Origin: a virus
Taxonomy: Duplodnaviria; Heunggongvirae; Uroviricota; Caudoviricetes
Direction: 5' to 3' (one strand)
Virus record (IMG/VR): IMGVR_UViG_2698536335_000005
Span: 1 to 5,032 of that record
DNA length: 5,032 nucleotides
The notes beneath the pieces were generated by a model. The model did no database searches. It was given only the letters and a program-made list of their open reading frames with translations, and was not told the origin of the DNA. Position 1 is the first letter of the stretch. Each line of letters begins with the position of its first letter. A program made the translations under genes and the position numbers. Below are positions 1 to 5,032 of the stretch, piece after piece.

Positions 1-1629
1 GGTGCAGACTTTTTCCACTTCCTGTTGCGCCACTGGTTCAGGCTGTTTCGTTTCTGGCTCGTTTTGTAACGCATTTGGGCTGTTTTGTTCCGCTTTTTGG
101 TAGTTCCGTTCCGATTCATGCTGGTTCTGGTTTACAGAATCGCGGGTCTGGATCCCCTTAACCCATTTCGGATCATTCGGGTCGCTAATCCCTGCAACAA
201 ATTCTCCGCGAGAGGCAGCAAGCAACTTATCGGCGTCAGGCTGGCTGATATTGGCTGCCTGCATAATTTTGTTTACTTCGTCAGCGGTAACTTTTACCGG
301 CTCTGGTTGTGCGGTCGTGTCAGATGCACCAGTATTTTGTTGTGAACCTGAGTATGTACTGTTTTTGCGGGCGAAATATTCTTCTTTCGTGATTTCAGTA
401 GCCCCGGCAGCCAGTGCCTTATCCAGACCAGAAAGTTTGTTTGCGCGACCGTATTTTTCGCCATCCTTGTCGGTGAAGAGGAAGTAGAACGGCCCCTCAC
501 GCTCTACAGATGGTTCGACTTCCACTTTGCATTCGGTTTTTTCGTTGTCCGGAATTGCCGTTTCCACTGCATCAGTTTCTGGTACTGGCGACGAGAGAGT
601 ATCAGTTGCGCTCTGATTTGTTCCTTCATCTTCAAACACGCCCTTTGTAGTCAGGTATTCAGTAATGTATTTGTTCAGTGCCACAGGGTCTTTGTGAATG
701 TCGATCGGACGTTCACGGACAAGGCCAAAAATAGTCTGGCGGTCGTAGCGAAGGGCATCAGGCTGTTTGCGCATTGATGAGTTGTCGATAACTTCATTTT
801 TTGCCCAGCGATGGATGCTGCCGTCAATGTTTCCGGCATCCACATCACCAGGCCAGAGAGCGTAGGCCAGTTCGTCATCCAGTGTTTTCCATGTCTGCTT
901 GTATTCGCGATGAATGGCAGCAATGACCAGGCTGATTTTTCCTGTTGAATTTTCAGTGTGCTGTTGATTGACTCTGGCGCGGGCGAGATCAACAACAGAC
1001 GTGTATTTTCCGGTTTCCTTGCGTTCACCTTCGCGACGTTTTTTCCAGATGCGCATCTCTGCCTGAATTTCGGGCCATTTGGCACCAGGCTTACATTTAT
1101 GCTTAACCCACCCGATGGCATGCAGCTTAAGCTCCGGATACATGGCGTTAACTTCTGGCATTTTCATCAACGCTTCAACGATATGTCCGTTGAATGTTGC
1201 CATGTCTTCCTGCAACAATTCCTGTGCGCTAATAACCATATCAACGGTGATGTTTTCACATGTGTCGAACTTAACCATGAGAGCGTTCTGTACTTCAGGG
1301 GCCAGCTTGTCAAAAGTGACGTTCATCAGATCGGATTCAGTCTCAACCGGGACAAAAGAAGCAGAATCCTCATCCCAGCGGTTTTCCTGCATATATTCAG
1401 CATCCCATGAATCGAGGGCAGGGCGGGGTATGCCAGGTTTATCCTCGCAGATAATAAATTTATAAGCGCAGTCCTGAGCAGCCGGATAATGTTCCAGGAA
1501 TTGCCAGTGAAATTTTGCTCGAGCACGGCGTTCGTCGCCAGCTTCAATAGCTGTGGCTACAGCCACAGCGCCTTCTTCCCTTGTTGCCAGTTCGTCAGGA
1601 ATGGCGGCGCAAATAAAGACTTTACTCAT
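1..1629 (-). CDS. recE: RecE-like exodeoxyribonuclease VIII, N-terminal 543 codons; 3' end lies beyond the window start
   Basis: ATG at 1629..1627 (MSKVFICAAIPDELATREEG...) is preceded by GAGG 10 nt upstream and an in-frame TAA just upstream. The frame is open to position 1; I spot-checked it by hand at 1-60, 121-240, 301-360, 481-540, 601-660, 841-900, 1201-1260 and 1601-1629. The ORF track omits it, presumably because it has no stop in the window. The stretch PDADKLLAASRGEFVAGISDPNDPKWVKGIQTRD (about 121-240) matches my recollection of the E. coli RecE middle region, and an acidic Pro/Glu/Gln-rich linker (TAQPEPVKV, ETKQPEPVAQQEVEKV) fits RecE. Position at the distal end of the early-left operon is as expected for a recombination module. 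Confidence 0.75.
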   Translation of the reverse strand, partial: MSKVFICAAIPDELATREEGAVAVATAIEAGDERRARAKFHWQFLEHYPAAQDCAYKFIICEDKPGIPRPALDSWDAEYMQENRWDEDSASFVPVETESDLMNVTFDKLAPEVQNALMVKFDTCENITVDMVISAQELLQEDMATFNGHIVEALMKMPEVNAMYPELKLHAIGWVKHKCKPGAKWPEIQAEMRIWKKRREGERKETGKYTSVVDLARARVNQQHTENSTGKISLVIAAIHREYKQTWKTLDDELAYALWPGDVDAGNIDGSIHRWAKNEVIDNSSMRKQPDALRYDRQTIFGLVRERPIDIHKDPVALNKYITEYLTTKGVFEDEGTNQSATDTLSSPVPETDAVETAIPDNEKTECKVEVEPSVEREGPFYFLFTDKDGEKYGRANKLSGLDKALAAGATEITKEEYFARKNSTYSGSQQNTGASDTTAQPEPVKVTADEVNKIMQAANISQPDADKLLAASRGEFVAGISDPNDPKWVKGIQTRDSVNQNQHESERNYQKAEQNSPNALQNEPETKQPEPVAQQEVEKVCT

Positions 1630-1724
1630 TTTGTTTTAACCTCATGACAGATTTCAAGGTGAACGAATCCCTGCCATTGCTGGCATTTTTAATCCGTTGG
1701 TATGGTGTTAATATGGCTGGAGGG

Positions 1725-1913
1725 TTATCCAGCCGGTGTTTCGTTATTCAGGTACAGCGATACTTTTTTTAGCGGGAGGCATTCACCAGAAATTTTTTGC
1801 TCGTCTCTTGCCTGGAGGCAGGATTCTTTACTTGCATAAATTCCGGTAATCACATTCTGTGATTCACCCGTTATAAGAAAAACCGTCATCATCAGTGCAA
1901 ATGCTGAAGTCAT
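1725..1913 (-). CDS. ydfD: YdfD-like small membrane (lysis-type) protein, 62 aa
   Basis: ORF-track ORF MTSAFALMMTVFLITGESQ... with a hydrophobic N-terminal segment. Its ATG (1913..1911) overlaps the dicB stop as ATGA, and GGAG lies 7 nt upstream. Size and position immediately after dicB match ydfD of the Qin dicB operon (63 aa). The symbol is assigned by synteny and size, not by recognised sequence. Confidence 0.6.
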   Translation of the reverse strand: MTSAFALMMTVFLITGESQNVITGIYASKESCLQARDEQKISGECLPLKKVSLYLNNETPAG

Positions 1914-2098
1914 TGACGTTCTCCGAAAATACCAAGTTCAAGAAGAGCAATTCGGGAAAGTATGGAATTATCATTGAGCAGATAAGGCTCATATTTCCTC
2001 ATATTAATGGCATCTTCAGTAAACTCCCGGTTACTGAGCAGAACACCAATATCAAAACAACCTTCAGACGTATTAACGTTTGGTAATAACGTTTCCAT
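1910..2098 (-). CDS. dicB: cell division inhibitor DicB (MinC-activating), 62 aa
   Basis: ORF-track ORF METLLPNVNTSEGCFDIGVLLSNREFTEDAIN...; the N-terminus matches my recollection of E. coli DicB (METLLPNVNTSEGCF...) and the length is exactly 62 aa. GAGGA lies 7 nt upstream of the ATG. It sits about 180 nt downstream of the DicF-like terminator, as in the Qin dicB operon. Confidence 0.85.
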   Translation of the reverse strand: METLLPNVNTSEGCFDIGVLLSNREFTEDAINMRKYEPYLLNDNSILSRIALLELGIFGERQ

Positions 2099-2276
2099 TA
2101 TCGCGTCCTCAACAATGAATTTTGTGATGCAGTGCCTGGTGCCTCCAGGTGACGTTAACCAGTTAACAATTAACGCCGGATTAGTTGATGCTCGTTACGC
2201 CCGTAAAATACCGCCTTACTGCTTTAACTGTTCCGCGTGCGCATAGCCGCATTCACCGCATCACAAAATTCACTTT

Positions 2277-2302
2277 AAAAAGGGCGGATATCCGTTTCCG
2301 CC
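2277..2302 (-). terminator. Rho-independent terminator (DicF 3' end), partial terminator inside the leftward operon
   Basis: On the minus strand a 6-bp GC-rich stem GGCGGA/TCCGCC (plus 2283-2288 and 2297-2302) with an 8-nt loop is followed directly by CUUUUU (plus 2277-2281 is AAAAA). There is no U-tract on the plus-strand side, so it is orientation-specific for leftward transcription. Confidence 0.6.
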
Positions 2303-2316
2303 GAATCACCAGAAAA
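2277..2316 (-). ncRNA. dicF: DicF-like small RNA (ftsZ-targeting family) embedded in the dicB operon
   Basis: Minus-strand RNA reads UUUUCUGGUGAUUCGGCGGAAACGGAUAUCCGCCCUUUUU. The 5' UUUCUGGUGA and the 3' CCGCCCUUUUU terminator match what I recall of E. coli DicF. No ORF is present, and the location (upstream of dicB, downstream of ydfC) is that of dicF. The 5' boundary is approximate because the RNA is processed from a longer transcript. Confidence 0.55.
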
Positions 2317-2617
2317 GTGATAACAGAGGGCGTTGCAGCGGGGTTGTCACTTAAGCGTATGGTCAACCTGACAACCCGGTGTCCTCAGCGGGGAAGGAAT
2401 AACCCCGCCATACTTACCGCCGCGCCATTTCGCGGATTGCCACAACCGGAAGCGCACGGTCGAATTAAATTTAACGACTACCTACAGAGAGACGAACTTC
2501 GCCGTGCGCTTTCGCGTTATGCCCTGACTTTTCAGGGATATATCCTTTTCAGTAAACTGTCAGTGCCGGATTCTTATCCGTGTCCGGCGCACGCACTCTA
2601 CCTCACCTGTGAATAAA

Positions 2618-2992
2618 TTAATGATTAATTGATATTTTGTTGTTTGATTCAACTTTCCCATCGGATGTGTGATGCTTTAAATCACAGGAATTAATACTGC
2701 TTGCTGTAAAATGATTTTCAAGGGGAGCTATTCGAATCCCTTTCTTTTTCATTAACAAGCCAAATCCTTTATTAATGATGTTCATTAATTCCAGGAAGTA
2801 TTTTTCATGTAAATTCTGGTTATCAGAGAGCTGCTTCTCTTCGCACAGACCGATAAAGGCACGACGCACGTTACCGGATATAGTATCGATGGTTTCTTTT
2901 TCTACGGTACTCAGGTCAAGAGTCGCCAGTTGGGAACGAACTATATTCGCTGCCATTTCCTGGAATTGCATTGGTAAATCTTTAAATTCCAT
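2618..2992 (-). CDS. hypothetical protein, 124 aa, with AT-rich 3' half; possible moron inserted between ydfC and DicF
   Basis: ORF-track ORF MEFKDLPMQFQEMAANIVRSQLATLDLSTVEKETIDTISGNVRRAFIGLCEEKQ... GAGG lies 6 nt upstream of the ATG at 2992, and the gene is co-oriented with the operon. The 5' part has ordinary GC content, while the 3' roughly 180 nt is very AT-rich and encodes a low-complexity tail (KKKGIRIAPLENHF...NNKISINH). I recognise no family. Confidence 0.5.
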   Translation of the reverse strand: MEFKDLPMQFQEMAANIVRSQLATLDLSTVEKETIDTISGNVRRAFIGLCEEKQLSDNQNLHEKYFLELMNIINKGFGLLMKKKGIRIAPLENHFTASSINSCDLKHHTSDGKVESNNKISINH

Positions 2993-3014
2993 TATTAGCC
3001 TCGTTGGTTAGCTA

Positions 3015-3233
3015 TTAACGCGGGTATGTAATCATTCTGGCAATGCTTAATGCCGCTGCTTTTTCCAGATTAGTGATATCCTGCTCCAGAGCGGACAGAT
3101 TTTCAGCCTGCTTAGCCCTGGCTTCATTGGCCCATTTCAGATCCTGCGCTGCATTAATTTTCTGGTGCATCCACTCATAAAGTTCATCATCGGTATAGTC
3201 TGGCGCGATGATGACGGGTTCTCGTTTCTGCAT
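3015..3233 (-). CDS. ydfC: YdfC-like small protein, 72 aa
   Basis: ORF-track ORF MQKREPVIIAPDYTDDELYEWMHQKINAAQDLKWANEARAKQ... with GAGGAA 6 nt upstream of the ATG. Length (72 aa) and the 29-nt gap after the preceding ydfB-like ORF match the Qin ydfA-ydfB-ydfC arrangement as I recall it. Symbol by synteny and size. Confidence 0.65.
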   Translation of the reverse strand: MQKREPVIIAPDYTDDELYEWMHQKINAAQDLKWANEARAKQAENLSALEQDITNLEKAAALSIARMITYPR

Positions 3234-3262
3234 ACTGATTCCTCGCGGTGCTGTTTCGCTTA

Positions 3263-3391
3263 TCAGCCGTTAGATTTTGCCGAACTGGAAAGCGCCTGTT
3301 TAAATTCGTTGAAGCTGAGAGCTTCTTCGCCTTCGGCAAGACCTTCGAAGTATTCTTCGTAAGCCTTTTCCATGATTGTGTCGAAATCCAT
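3263..3391 (-). CDS. ydfB: YdfB-like small acidic protein, 42 aa (below the ORF-track size cutoff)
   Basis: Hand translation of the minus strand: ATG at 3391..3389, MDFDTIMEKAYEEYFEGLAEGEEALSFNEFKQALSSSAKSNG, stop TGA at 3265..3263. AGGTGA lies 5-6 nt upstream, and the ATG is 1 nt after the ydfA-like stop (TGAtATG), indicating translational coupling. The 42-aa length matches Qin ydfB. Confidence 0.55.
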   Translation of the reverse strand: MDFDTIMEKAYEEYFEGLAEGEEALSFNEFKQALSSSAKSNG

Positions 3392-3392
3392 A

Positions 3393-3548
3393 TCACTCAC
3401 CTGAGTTTCTTTCCAGCCAGCGACGGGCACCATTTTCGGTTTTAAACGTTTTGCTTTTGGTATACGTCATCGCGGTGAACGTACCGTCCTGGTTGGGGAA
3501 CACGCCACATACCAGAGATTCGCTGTTGCCAAGATCGATAGTATCCAT
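3393..3548 (-). CDS. ydfA: YdfA-like small protein, 51 aa; alternative upstream start at 3629 would give 78 aa
   Basis: The ORF-track ORF 3393..3629 is 78 aa, but the internal ATG at 3548..3546 (MDTIDLGNSESLVCGVFPNQDGTF...) has GAGG 5 nt upstream and yields exactly 51 aa, the Qin ydfA length. The 3629 start has GAGG about 9 nt upstream and cannot be excluded from sequence alone. Confidence 0.6.
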   Translation of the reverse strand: MDTIDLGNSESLVCGVFPNQDGTFTAMTYTKSKTFKTENGARRWLERNSGE

Positions 3549-3730
3549 GCTGACCTCATTTCCCCTTAACGCCGGGGTAGCGGAACAAAAACCTGCTGCA
3601 TAGTTATTAAAGTTGAACCCTGCCGTCATGTTCTTACGCCTCGGGCTGGCTACTTAACCCCTGACCACTGCCTGGTAACTCGAAGTATTGCCCTGCATTC
3701 TGTGGGGCGGGGTGGGTTGGTATGAAAAGA

Positions 3731-3759
3731 AGGATACCCATAGGTATTTAAAAAGTAAA
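3731..3759 (-). promoter_or_regulatory. candidate sigma70 promoter for the leftward operon (pL/pdicB-like)
   Basis: On the minus strand: -35 TTTACT (plus 3754-3759), 17-nt spacer, -10 TATCCT (plus 3731-3736). The predicted start near 3723-3725 leaves a leader of roughly 95 to 175 nt depending on the ydfA start. Both flanking operator copies overlap the -35 side and the spacer/-10. Confidence 0.4.
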
Positions 3760-3771
3760 TACCCATGGGTA
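3735..3771. promoter_or_regulatory. OL-like operator pair: TACCCATAGGTA (3735-3746) and perfect palindrome TACCCATGGGTA (3760-3771)
   Basis: Two 12-bp dyad-symmetric sites with centres about 25 bp apart overlap the leftward promoter. The same motif recurs in the repressor/cro intergenic region. Confidence 0.55.
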
Positions 3772-3813
3772 AATTTTTGCGGTGTCTTAACTGGTGACTA
3801 GTTGTTTGGTGAG

Positions 3814-4233
3814 CTATGATGCGTTTTGTGCTTTCTTTTTACGGATTTCTTCGTAGATCATATTGTAATACTGTTTTTTCTCTTCAAGAGTTTTTAATAA
3901 TTTATCCGCTTCACTTTCTGGCAGTTCGTCTAAGAGATCTAAAAAAATACGTTGTCGTGGCGTTAGAACCCTTGTTTCATAACTGGAGGCTGTGTTCGTT
4001 GATGATGAAACGATACCATCCATCCATCCCCGGGGTAACCCAAAGGACTCTTCGATAATCTCCACCATATCATCAGCGATCCGTTTTTTTCCCTTTTTCC
4101 CCTCTGGGTACAACATTCTTGATACATAAGAAGGCTCGCGCCCGATCTTTCTGGCCACGTTAACCGCTTTACCATCGCATTTCTCATCACGAATTTTGAT
4201 GAGTTGCTGTCGTCTAAATTCATATTTGTCCAT
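3814..4233 (-). CDS. prophage immunity repressor, XRE/cI-type N-terminal HTH, 139 aa, no LexA-like peptidase domain
   Basis: ORF-track ORF MDKYEFRRQQLIKIRDEKCDGKAVNVARKIGREPSYVSRMLYPEG... with an HTH-like segment near residues 20-40. It is divergent from the cro-like gene and co-oriented with the leftward operon, which is the cI/DicA/RacR position. At 139 aa it is too short for an S24 autocleavage domain. No SD precedes the ATG, consistent with a leaderless transcript. Confidence 0.75.
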   Translation of the reverse strand: MDKYEFRRQQLIKIRDEKCDGKAVNVARKIGREPSYVSRMLYPEGKKGKKRIADDMVEIIEESFGLPRGWMDGIVSSSTNTASSYETRVLTPRQRIFLDLLDELPESEADKLLKTLEEKKQYYNMIYEEIRKKKAQNAS

Positions 4234-4304
4234 AGGTAAATAATAGATGCGATTACCGCAAGGTAAACAACCTGTGGGTATTGACTTTTGTTTACCTGTG
4301 GGTA
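4227..4304. promoter_or_regulatory. OR-like tripartite operator: TGTCCATAGGTA (4227-4238), AACCTGTGGGTA (4269-4280), TACCTGTGGGTA (4293-4304)
   Basis: Three copies of the OL motif (9-10 of 12 matches to TACCCATGGGTA) lie between the divergent repressor and cro-like genes. The 4227-4238 copy overlaps the repressor start codon. The other two flank and overlap the rightward -35 and -10. Confidence 0.5.
4240..4267 (-). promoter_or_regulatory. candidate pRM-like promoter producing a leaderless repressor mRNA
   Basis: On the minus strand: -35 TTTACC (plus 4262-4267), 16-nt spacer, -10 TATTAT (plus 4240-4245). The -10 ends 6 nt before the repressor ATG at 4233, so the predicted start falls at or next to the ATG, and no SD is present. 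Confidence 0.4.
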
Positions 4305-4308
4305 TTCT
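4282..4308 (+). promoter_or_regulatory. candidate pR-like promoter for the cro-like/ydaT operon
   Basis: -35 TTGACT at 4282-4287. The best -10 is TATTCT at 4303-4308 with a short 15-nt spacer, so the -10 assignment is uncertain. It lies between and over the two right-hand operator copies, about 25 nt upstream of the ydaS-like RBS. Confidence 0.35.
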
Positions 4309-4333
4309 TTGCTGTGTTTACTAAGGAGTAGCT

Positions 4334-4615
4334 ATGGAAGAATTAAGAATATTTCTCAATTCTCTTTCGTCAGATGAACAGCGTATGTTTGCATGCGAGT
4401 GTGGTACCAGCATCGGTTATCTAAGAAAGGCATTGAGTAAAGGTCAAGTGTTAGGGGCATCGTTATGTGTCCTTATTGAGCGAGCCAGTAATGGTGAAGT
4501 TACACGTCAGCAACTAAGGCCTTTTGATTGGATGAATATTTGGCCCGAGCTGGAAGATACCAAAACGTTAACACAACCACTTTCTAGGAGCTTGATTCAT
4601 GAAAATCAAGCATGA
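4334..4615 (+). CDS. ydaS: Cro-like HTH regulator, YdaS family, 93 aa
   Basis: ORF-track ORF MEELRIFLNSLSSDEQRMFACECGTSIGYLRKALSKGQVLGASLCVLIERASNGEVTRQQLRPFDWMNIWPELED... AAGGAG lies 5 nt upstream of the ATG. The motif IERASNGEVTRQQLRP...WPEL resembles the YdaS/Cro family as I recall it. It is divergent from the repressor, in the cro position. Confidence 0.75.
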   Translation: MEELRIFLNSLSSDEQRMFACECGTSIGYLRKALSKGQVLGASLCVLIERASNGEVTRQQLRPFDWMNIWPELEDTKTLTQPLSRSLIHENQA

Positions 4616-5024
4616 ACACATCCGCATGGCGATGAATGCCTGGGCGCGTCCTGATGGCGAAAAAGTTCCAGCAGCTGGAATAACCCAGGCTTATTTTGAG
4701 TTGGGTATGACGTTCCCAGAACTGTATGACGACAGCCATCCGGAAGCCCTGGCTCGCAATACCCAGAAAATTTTCCGCTGGGTAGAGAAAGACACCCCTG
4801 ATGCTGTTGAAAAAATGCAGGCTCTGTTACCGGCGATCGAAAAGGCGATGCCGCCTTTGCTGGTGGCCCGTATGCGCAGCCACAGTTCTGAATATTACCG
4901 TGAGATCGTCGAACGGAGGGATCGGCTGGTGAAGGATGTCGATGATTTTGTTGCGTCAGCGGTTGTTTTGTATGACCAGATGAATCGCGGCGGCCCGGCA
5001 GGGAATGCTGTGGTGATGCACTAA
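4599..5024 (+). CDS. ydaT: YdaT-family protein (cII-position early regulator, toxic on overexpression in Rac), 141 aa
   Basis: ORF-track ORF MKIKHEHIRMAMNAWARPDGEKVPAAGITQAYFELGMTF... AGGAG lies 8 nt upstream of the ATG, and the gene overlaps the 3' end of the ydaS-like gene by 17 nt. The MKIKHEHI start and roughly 140-aa size match my recollection of E. coli YdaT. Stop TAA at 5022-5024. Confidence 0.75.
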   Translation: MKIKHEHIRMAMNAWARPDGEKVPAAGITQAYFELGMTFPELYDDSHPEALARNTQKIFRWVEKDTPDAVEKMQALLPAIEKAMPPLLVARMRSHSSEYYREIVERRDRLVKDVDDFVASAVVLYDQMNRGGPAGNAVVMH

Positions 5025-5032
5025 AAGCACGG

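Follow-up and report, generated by a model that had tools for sequence, protein, structure and literature searches.

A modular family of hypothetical early genes represented by ORF124 of a Qin/Rac-type Escherichia coli prophage

ORF124 is an open reading frame (ORF) of 124 codons at positions 2618-2992, on the minus strand, of a 5,032-nucleotide (nt) stretch of viral DNA (Caudoviricetes; IMG/VR record IMGVR_UViG_2698536335_000005, positions 1 to 5,032), which we refer to throughout as the window. Its sequence is that of the immunity and early-left region in a lambdoid E. coli prophage of Qin/Rac type. An earlier reading, made from the letters of the DNA without database searches (the sequence-only reading), had placed ORF124 between ydfC and the small RNA DicF, and its coordinates proved exact. 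We are highly confident that ORF124 is a real accessory gene of an uncharacterised modular protein family. Our fuller reading, to which we assign a probability of about 0.5, is that this accessory gene occupies a recombination-prone slot and encodes a soluble binding protein, made upon derepression of the prophage, in which a conserved hairpin is joined to an exchangeable C-terminal module (C-module).

Coding evidence for ORF124 and its absence from K-12

In a scan of IMG/VR we identified 80 loci encoding relatives of ORF124 at 78-99% identity. The sequence-only reading had named, as the finding that would count against a gene, a noncoding spacer with stop codons or frameshifts in related prophages; instead, exactly 124 codons were kept intact in 75 of the 80 loci, and the other five encode a distinct form of 106/109 codons. 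Among the 36 unique 124-codon alleles, the ratio of nonsynonymous to synonymous substitution rates (dN/dS, or ω), calculated by the method of Nei and Gojobori, was 0.25 overall. By segment the ratio was 0.18 (codons 1-53), 0.23 (codons 54-94) and 0.31 (codons 95-124), and in codon bootstraps all three segments fell below 0.5 (upper bounds of 0.46 for codons 54-94 and 0.50 for codons 95-124). When the same calculation was applied to the other five reading frames we obtained values of 0.34-1.97, such that the frame of ORF124 had the lowest ratio of the six. Moreover, the variable sites of ORF124 were distributed 40/24/55 over the three codon positions, an excess at the third. The untranslated leader between ORF124 and DicF served as a control; among 29 unique leaders (mean pairwise identity ~94%) the variable sites were distributed 28/24/25 by plus-strand codon position and there were many insertions or deletions (indels) of 1, 2 and 4 nt, so that this region carries no coding signature.

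The annotation of ORF124 is consistent with these findings. RefSeq gives the same annotation at the identical locus, where the product is listed as the "hypothetical protein" WP_000394532.1, and ORF124 was an intact coding sequence for a hypothetical protein in 60/60 evenly spaced RefSeq matches that we sampled. The ATG lies 22 nt from the stop codon of ydfC, and the good ribosome-binding site that had been claimed for ORF124 is a GAGG 6 nt before this ATG. Two frames on the plus strand were considered as genes and rejected. The first, a shadow ORF of 78 codons at 2775-3011, contains stops in 22 of 37 alleles, its low ω of 0.34 being explained by third positions that it has in common with the true frame. 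The second, an ORF of 143 amino acids (aa) at 2185-2616, is frameshifted in K-12, shows no codon-position bias and contains indels. As far as sequence analysis can tell, then, ORF124 is a real protein gene under purifying selection.

ORF124 is also common. By megablast, 932 of 5426 complete E. coli genomes (about one in six, including O157:H7 and other Shiga-toxin (Stx) strains) match it, 702 of them over at least 80% of its length, and its distribution across the species is patchy. The full-length window is 100% identical only to strain 2013C-4991, and the 601 nt around ORF124 are 100% identical in many O157:H7 genomes. The exact protein occurs, always unnamed, on more than 1000 contigs of a large protein collection. 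An exhaustive profile search of 1.84 billion proteins returned only 55 representatives of the family, which is very small overall and comprises 239 clusters at 90% identity, almost all of them from Escherichia.

Alignment with the dicBF operon of the K-12 Qin prophage bore out the claim that the rest of the leftward operon mirrors Qin gene for gene; the gene order is the same, the leader 5' of DicF is shared, and DNA identity is ~90% on either side of ORF124. The two operons differ in that K-12 has 22 nt (GGTTAGTAATTAAGGAGTTCTC) where the window has a ~385-nt cassette containing ORF124, and in that the spacer from ydfC to DicF measures 699 nt in the window versus 340 nt in K-12. ORF124 is thus an insertion or replacement, an extra gene that has no counterpart in the K-12 reference operon, as the sequence-only reading had supposed. 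The flanks of the cassette are conserved (left flank, ...GAGGCTAA; right flank, CAC(A/G)GGTGAGGT...). Note that we entertained, and rejected, the idea that K-12 keeps a decayed ribosome-binding site and start of ORF124, since cassettes that carry partner genes (see below) identify the K-12 sequence as a homolog of the right flank. K-12 looks like an empty site that has retained part of this flank. Because K-12-type elements lack ORF124 and empty sites are common, the gene is dispensable for the prophage.

A conserved hairpin with exchangeable C-terminal modules

PHROG family phrog_6937 matches ORF124 over its full length (residues 1-124 against positions 1-124 of a 124-position profile, E = 4.5e-76), and phrog_1363, phrog_2151 and phrog_9419 match its N-terminal module (N-module) only, over residues 1-64, 1-54 and 1-50, respectively. 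All four are families of unknown function without annotation or a tested member. In alignments, residues 1-53 hardly vary, whichever C-terminal type follows, the strictly conserved motifs of the predicted hairpin being the N-terminal MEFKDLP and RNVRxAFxGLY. We define the N-module family here by a domain of ~53 aa, predicted as a two-helix hairpin, with an MxFKDLP start and (R/K)xV(R/K)xAFxxL(Y/F) in helix 2, all of which ORF124 has. In relatives, at least five unrelated C-termini are joined to the conserved N-module, namely type A (124 aa, the window form, and a shortened form of 106/109 aa), type B (133 aa), type C (122-125 aa), type D (135 or 201 aa) and a type found in Stx phages (147 aa), to which the more distant relatives add several forms of 140-208 aa; some N-modules, of 65-70 aa, stand alone. 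A few members (P0071, P0081) pair a divergent N-module with the type-A C-module, which argues that both halves recombine.

The Stx-phage type is exemplified by gp22 of phage ArgO145 (L083 2501-2944; 147 aa), whose N-module is 45% identical to that of ORF124 and which is also present in ~40 other Stx-converting phages. In the exo-side early region, this homolog is flanked by genes for DUF2303 and PAPS reductase, and the N-module is thus not confined to the dicBF context.

The boundary between the two modules is visible in the DNA itself. One class of genomes matches only positions 216-375 of the query, which places a sharp breakpoint in DNA homology at window position 2833, one base past codon 53. 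The AT-rich 3' half that had been noticed from the sequence is real (GC content 0.311 for 2618-2800 versus 0.422 for 2801-2992), and 2610-2822 is the lowest-GC 213-nt stretch of the whole window (0.296). The split at 2800 that had been proposed for measuring it did not hold, as the actual compositional break is at ~2833, where it coincides with the homology breakpoint. The difference in GC content between codons 54-124 and codons 1-53 (Table 1; Fisher p = 0.023) reflects a fall at all three codon positions (GC at the third position, 0.43 to 0.34; at the first, 0.55 to 0.37). The coincidence of the GC drop with the breakpoint in homology argues that the AT-rich 3' part is an exchangeable module and that the compositional clue marks a recombination joint.

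We made two structure predictions with AlphaFold2 (AF2), the second with a more diverse alignment. Helices at residues 8-23, 32-52/55 and 59/62-84, followed by a disordered tail from about residue 88, were predicted in both runs. The N-terminal hairpin was confident in all five models of the second run, with a predicted local distance difference test score (pLDDT) of 87-93 per 10-residue block in the best model; it was predicted with confidence in the first run, too. By isoelectric point (pI) the N-module (4.65) is acidic and the helix-3 segment (9.7) basic; the tail is polar. No hydrophobic segment was found in ORF124 (maximum Kyte-Doolittle value for a 19-residue window, 0.53), and the product is predicted to be a small soluble cytoplasmic protein without a signal peptide or membrane segment.

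The profile (HMM) and structure searches that the sequence-only reading had called for yielded no known function, only function-unknown PHROG families matching ORF124. Specifically, no Pfam family matched at E <= 0.1, NCBIfam gave no match, and no family of PADLOC-DB, which covers defence and not anti-defence proteins, matched at E <= 1. Pfam searches with ten longer relatives, the Stx-phage homolog and the convergent partners described below returned sub-threshold noise only, and an Rfam scan of the window gave no match inside ORF124. Foldseek against the PDB (best E = 1.1) and a profile search of the PDB (best E = 0.15) were uninformative. Against BFVD, the best Foldseek match (E = 0.75) was to a 52-aa protein of an E. 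coli phage that is probably a member of the ORF124 family. In a search of the literature we found no paper on ORF124 or its accession and no expression data.

How might such a protein be made, and how might it act? [quoted passage not shown] A consensus scan found promoter-like sites within and flanking ORF124 at a frequency not above chance (2 versus 3.2 expected), only one weak site (9 of 12 positions), overlapping the ribosome-binding site, upstream on its strand, and no terminator 3' of the gene (counts at or below the expectation from shuffled sequence). Because ORF124 lies inside the leftward operon without a consensus promoter or terminator of its own, its co-transcription with dicF and dicB is plausible. 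The gene would be transcribed with the rest of the early-left operon only once the DicA-type repressor is lifted. Translation would start from the GAGG site of ORF124 itself, and the product would be made along with DicF and DicB. The product itself would consist of three parts, namely the acidic two-helix hairpin as an autonomous domain, the basic helix 3, which probably packs onto the hairpin, and a disordered tail of ~35 residues. Such a protein would act through protein-protein binding rather than catalysis. We suggest, tentatively, that it serves as a binding adaptor, a mechanism that we consider rather doubtful; the invariant hairpin (MEFKDLP, RNVRxAFxGLY) would dock onto one conserved partner of phage or host origin, and the exchangeable C-module would set a second, variable specificity or tune activity.

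Several points weigh against the reading of ORF124 as a real gene for a modular binding protein. The IMG/VR loci were picked by protein similarity, which favours intact copies, and the dN/dS values are pairwise and ignore phylogeny (shared ancestry) and recombination. Helix 3 is placed with low confidence (in the second AF2 run its blocks had a pLDDT of 52-61), and the first run gave only a single good model out of five. "Binding protein" is a default inference for small helical early proteins of phages. The upstream neighbour varies (ydfC or ydfA), and no fixed co-encoded partner is apparent. Finally, the N-module could be conserved in part because it serves recombination as a homology arm; that it is still conserved in the most distant relatives, at 23-34% overall identity, argues for constraint at the level of the protein.

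Candidate roles and the contents of the slot

Among more specific accounts of the gene, one that we consider unlikely holds that ORF124 is an anti-defence or inter-phage competition factor (acting, for example, in restriction alleviation, anti-abortive infection or superinfection exclusion) and that the variable C-modules are the product of an arms race with host or phage targets that themselves vary. The address is suggestive, as it is in the early-left operon that lambda and P22 carry ral, cIII, kil, gam and abc. Moreover, the ORF124 protein is small, acidic and helical, one end of it is diversified in a cassette-like manner, and its distribution among E. coli genomes is patchy. However, no similarity to known anti-defence, defence or lambda pL proteins was detected (Pfam, NCBIfam, PHROG, PADLOC), and selection on the C-module is purifying and not diversifying, variation arising by module replacement only. 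The roles that the sequence-only reading had proposed (host takeover, superinfection exclusion and anti-defence) fit the genomic address, have no computed support, and are conjecture.

Other accounts turn on what else the slot contains. Between the same flanks, sister cassettes often carry, in addition to the MEFKDLP gene, another small gene encoded on the opposite strand, with an overlap of 22-40 nt at the 3' end of the former (Table 1). Type A-106/109 always occurs with a convergent gene of 91 aa, type B-133 with one of 92 aa in 47 of 59 distinct segments, and type D-135 with one of 77 aa. Type A-124, the window form, has a partner in none of ~80 distinct segments; in the window, no convergent or adjacent small gene was found that could be a partner of ORF124, the plus-strand ORF at 2185-2616 being noncoding. 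The right flank, CACCCTCCTGAGGGTTGGTAATTAAGGAGTTCTCC, carries the ribosome-binding site of the partner genes, and K-12 keeps part of it. The last ~95 nt of ORF124 have no homolog in the partner-carrying cassettes. Partner genes belong to the function-unknown families phrog_18692 and phrog_10348 or to no family. The 91- and 92-aa partners are homologous to one another (28% identity, E = 1.6e-5), and the others are mutually unrelated.

The surroundings of the slot vary as well. Type A-124 follows ydfC or ydfA (DUF1391) about equally often. Three distant relatives (P0148, P0159 and P0167; 23-25% overall identity) lie after a repressor gene, two of them after DUF1391 and two before KilR or DicB and a RecE-type exonuclease. 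We take a location near the start of the early-left operon of a Qin/Rac-type prophage, ahead of DicB or KilR and the exonuclease, as typical of the family; ORF124 has it in the window, and the Stx-phage homolog is an exception. Another protein, P0162 (L173 1037-1486; 149 aa), has YdfC-like residues 1-90 fused in frame to an N-module at residues 92-140. This fusion, from a single metagenomic contig of 1.8 kb, might point to YdfC and the module being functionally linked. An obligatory link between ORF124 and ydfC was rejected, as ydfA is upstream about as often and the fusion is known from one contig only. Of the four contigs examined (those of P0148, P0159, P0167 and P0162), three again show, at the 3' end, a small gene in convergent orientation.

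A view that we hold to be quite unlikely is that the slot, from ydfA/ydfC to dicF/dicB (or kilR), is a dedicated diversity hotspot. On this account, the conserved MEFKDLP docking hairpin would be recombined onto many C-terminal effector modules, often beside reverse-oriented small genes expressed in the lysogen, to give a polymorphic system, whether for host manipulation, for competition between phages or of an effector/antidote kind, that is turned on along with the division block by DicB and DicF; ORF124 would be one common allele of it, without a partner.

It is improbable, in our estimation, that ORF124 is the solo survivor of a two-gene polymorphic effector cassette, in which a variable C-terminal effector co-varied with an immunity or antidote gene, encoded on the opposite strand and expressed in the lysogen, the 124-aa form having lost its partner. 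The convergent genes of types A-106/109, B-133 and D-135, their 3' overlaps, the presence of such genes on three of the four distant contigs, and the homology of the 91- and 92-aa partners are all in keeping with this idea. Linkage alone, however, predicts co-variation, as the block between the conserved flanks is swapped whole, and the remaining partners are unrelated to each other. In addition, type A-124 is common and under purifying selection, yet it lacks a partner. No toxin or immunity domain was detected (ORF124 matches none in Pfam, NCBIfam or PADLOC; the partners in the sister cassettes contain no known domain, including by PHROGs). Moreover, the forms that carry partners are shorter than the solo forms (106 versus 124 aa, and 135 versus 201 aa), which fits the insertion of reverse-oriented morons into the 3' end of the gene. 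We read the slot as a recombination and insertion hotspot rather than as a conserved two-gene system.

It is very unlikely that only the N-module of ~55 aa is functional and that the C-terminal 70 residues are incidental read-through into recombined AT-rich DNA. The existence of stand-alone N-modules of 65-70 aa, the unrelated C-termini of very different lengths, the predicted disorder and low complexity of the tail and the frequency of shortened 106-109-aa forms would all be expected if this were so. Against it stand the dN/dS values for codons 54-94 and 95-124, with bounds of at most 0.50, the value of 0.28 for the type-B C-module, the retention of the 124-codon length in 36 distinct alleles, and the prediction of helix 3 in both AF2 runs. 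Values of 0.23-0.31 for type A and 0.28 for type B argue that the variable C-modules are not incidental read-through.

That ORF124 is not a gene but a chance ORF in a long untranslated leader feeding DicF processing is barely credible, for although K-12 Qin works without ORF124 and dicF lies in a long untranslated region (PMC5069750), the purifying selection is frame-specific, the length is conserved across 36 alleles, the ribosome-binding site is good, the 239-cluster family includes relatives of as little as 23% identity that occupy this slot, and the adjoining true leader lacks a coding signature by the same tests.

The surrounding operon and comparison with known systems

Pfam and RefSeq together identify the operon that contains ORF124 as a Qin-type dicBF operon, with the order ydfA-ydfB-ydfC-dicF-dicB-ydfD under a DicA-type repressor. 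Table 1 lists the features of the window and of the related cassettes.

Table 1 Features of the window and partner genes of sister prophages
Feature	Position	Strand	Remarks
ORF124 coding sequence, including TAA stop	2618-2992	minus	ATG start, 124 aa; phrog_6937; WP_000394532.1
GAGG ribosome-binding site	2999-3002	minus	6 nt 5' of the ORF124 ATG; read directly from the sequence
N-module, codons 1-53 (159 nt)	2834-2992	minus	MEFKDLP...RNVRRAFIGLxEEK; predicted acidic two-helix hairpin; GC 0.44
Type A C-module, codons 54-124 and stop	2618-2833	minus	exchangeable; GC 0.32
Predicted helix 3, residues 59-84	~2741-2818	minus	AF2
Predicted disordered Ser/Asn/His/Asp-rich tail, residues ~88-124	~2621-2731	minus	AF2
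Cassette limits relative to K-12 Qin	~2612-2996		~385 nt versus 22 nt; from alignments
Conserved untranslated leader, 302 nt	2316-2617	minus	ORF124 stop to DicF 5' end; shared with K-12
DicF-like RNA	2277-2315	minus	39-nt span, 5' seed UUUCUGGUGA, terminator hairpin; downstream neighbour of ORF124 in the operon
dicB	1910-2098	minus	Pfam DicB match
ydfD (DUF1482)	1725-1913	minus	Pfam DUF1482 match
Large RecE-type exonuclease gene		minus	listed after ydfD
ydfC	3015-3233	minus	upstream neighbour of ORF124
ydfB	3263-3391	minus	
ydfA (DUF1391)	3393-3548	minus	as RefSeq calls it; Pfam DUF1391 match
Repressor-like gene	3814-4233	minus	
cro-like (YdaS-type) and YdaT genes		plus	
Partner genes in sister prophages, 69-92 aa	L085 1210-1485; L088 1207-1485; L087 1206-1439; L084 2886-3119		
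Further partner genes, within the same range of 69-92 aa	L170 5377-5595; L172 5628-5837; L173 1500-1772		

The DicF of the window (TTTCTGGTGATTCGGCGGAAACGGATATCCGCCCTTTTT) also differs from that of K-12. It is a short variant of 39 nt, versus the canonical span of 58 nt, that keeps the 5' seed and the terminator hairpin and lacks ~19 internal nt. The 3' region of DicF that pairs with ftsZ and pykA (PMC5069750) falls within the missing nucleotides, and because of this the short DicF may regulate only targets of the 5' seed such as xylR. At E < 1 the short DicF escaped detection by Rfam, and it has no annotation in RefSeq. With the surrounding 91 nt as query, coverage was at least 80% in 442 of the 5426 E. 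coli genomes, many of O157:H7 among them. The leader between DicF and dicB (2066-2284, minus strand) gave a sub-threshold Rfam match to the Salmonella sRNA family STnc100 (31 bits versus a gathering threshold of 47, E = 4.6e-4). That this match covers the leader suggests that STnc100 is a homologous prophage leader region.

Upstream of ORF124, the start codons that RefSeq gives for ydfA and ydfB may be mis-set and the longer frames real. The ydfB frame at 3263-3433 (minus strand; 56 aa, versus 42 aa in RefSeq) matches phrog_2061 end to end, and in the ydfA frame at 3393-3629 (minus strand; 78 aa, versus 51 aa in RefSeq) residues 10-77 match phrog_751. Between ydfA and the repressor gene lies a palindrome with 16-bp arms (TACCCATAGGTATTTA..TAAATACCCATGGGTA; 3735-3771), and a direct repeat of ACCTGTGGGTAT is present at ~4268-4305, between the divergent repressor and cro-like genes. 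The palindrome and these repeats are probably operator sites. The palindrome also gave rise to a spurious Rfam match to mir-2041 and to a terminator-like call.

Two related prophages carry rearrangements close to the slot. In strain Ecol_AZ146 (L086 660-1627), ORF124 directly follows the DUF1391 gene, and downstream of the DicF region a gene for a Rha-family regulator is inserted next to a partially duplicated dicB. In a second prophage (L172 3899-4563), a pair consisting of a HigB toxin gene and a helix-turn-helix antitoxin gene lies between the repressor and DUF1391 genes, which indicates that the start of the operon also takes up toxin-antitoxin cargo.

As a gene common in pathogenic E. coli, whose family is already in PHROGs (phrog_6937), and in a region where specialists expect small hypothetical ORFs, ORF124 would not in itself surprise. 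Its N-module is without a Pfam or NCBIfam model, and what is new here is the module boundary (codon 53), the signature (MEFKDLP...RNVRxAFxGLY), the natural swaps, the stand-alone modules and the empty sites. Note that ORF124 would be placed for synthesis alongside the cell-division inhibitors DicB and DicF when the prophage is derepressed. If the hairpin has a single conserved partner, a role would follow for a whole set of "hypothetical" early genes of Qin/Rac-type prophages; if there is no phenotype, ORF124 joins the ordinary accessory ORFs of which mosaic phage regions have many.

Among known systems, ORF124 can be compared with morons, with polymorphic toxin loci and with the small proteins of lambdoid pL operons. 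The suggestion that ORF124 is a horizontally acquired moron stands in part, but it is not a classical one. Like a classical lambdoid moron, it is present or absent between conserved flanks and is AT-rich relative to its neighbours, and its 3' part is compositionally distinct and exchanged by recombination. Unlike one, it is in operon orientation without a promoter or terminator of its own by the consensus scan, and exchange is confined to its 3' two-thirds, the 5' 159 nt encoding a conserved domain common to the whole family. The reverse-oriented small genes of the sister cassettes fit the definition of a moron better than ORF124 does. With polymorphic toxin/immunity loci and the operons of pore-forming colicins it shares a conserved N-module, a C-module that can be swapped and, for many of its relatives, a small gene in convergent orientation; it differs from toxin/immunity loci in that no toxin, immunity or secretion-related domain was found, the partners are mostly unrelated to one another and the window copy has no partner. 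The small proteins of lambdoid pL operons (Ral, cIII, Kil and Gam of lambda, DicB of Qin and KilR of Rac) are likewise encoded in a leftward operon induced by derepression, and are small, helical, non-enzymatic and dispensable. They have no sequence or profile similarity to ORF124 (by Pfam at the threshold above and by PHROGs), however, and the architecture of a conserved N-terminus and a variable C-terminus is that of ORF124 and not a feature of theirs. ORF124 resembles the modulators of pL operons by position and size, belongs to none of those families, and is best filed among the accessory genes of mosaic prophage early regions.

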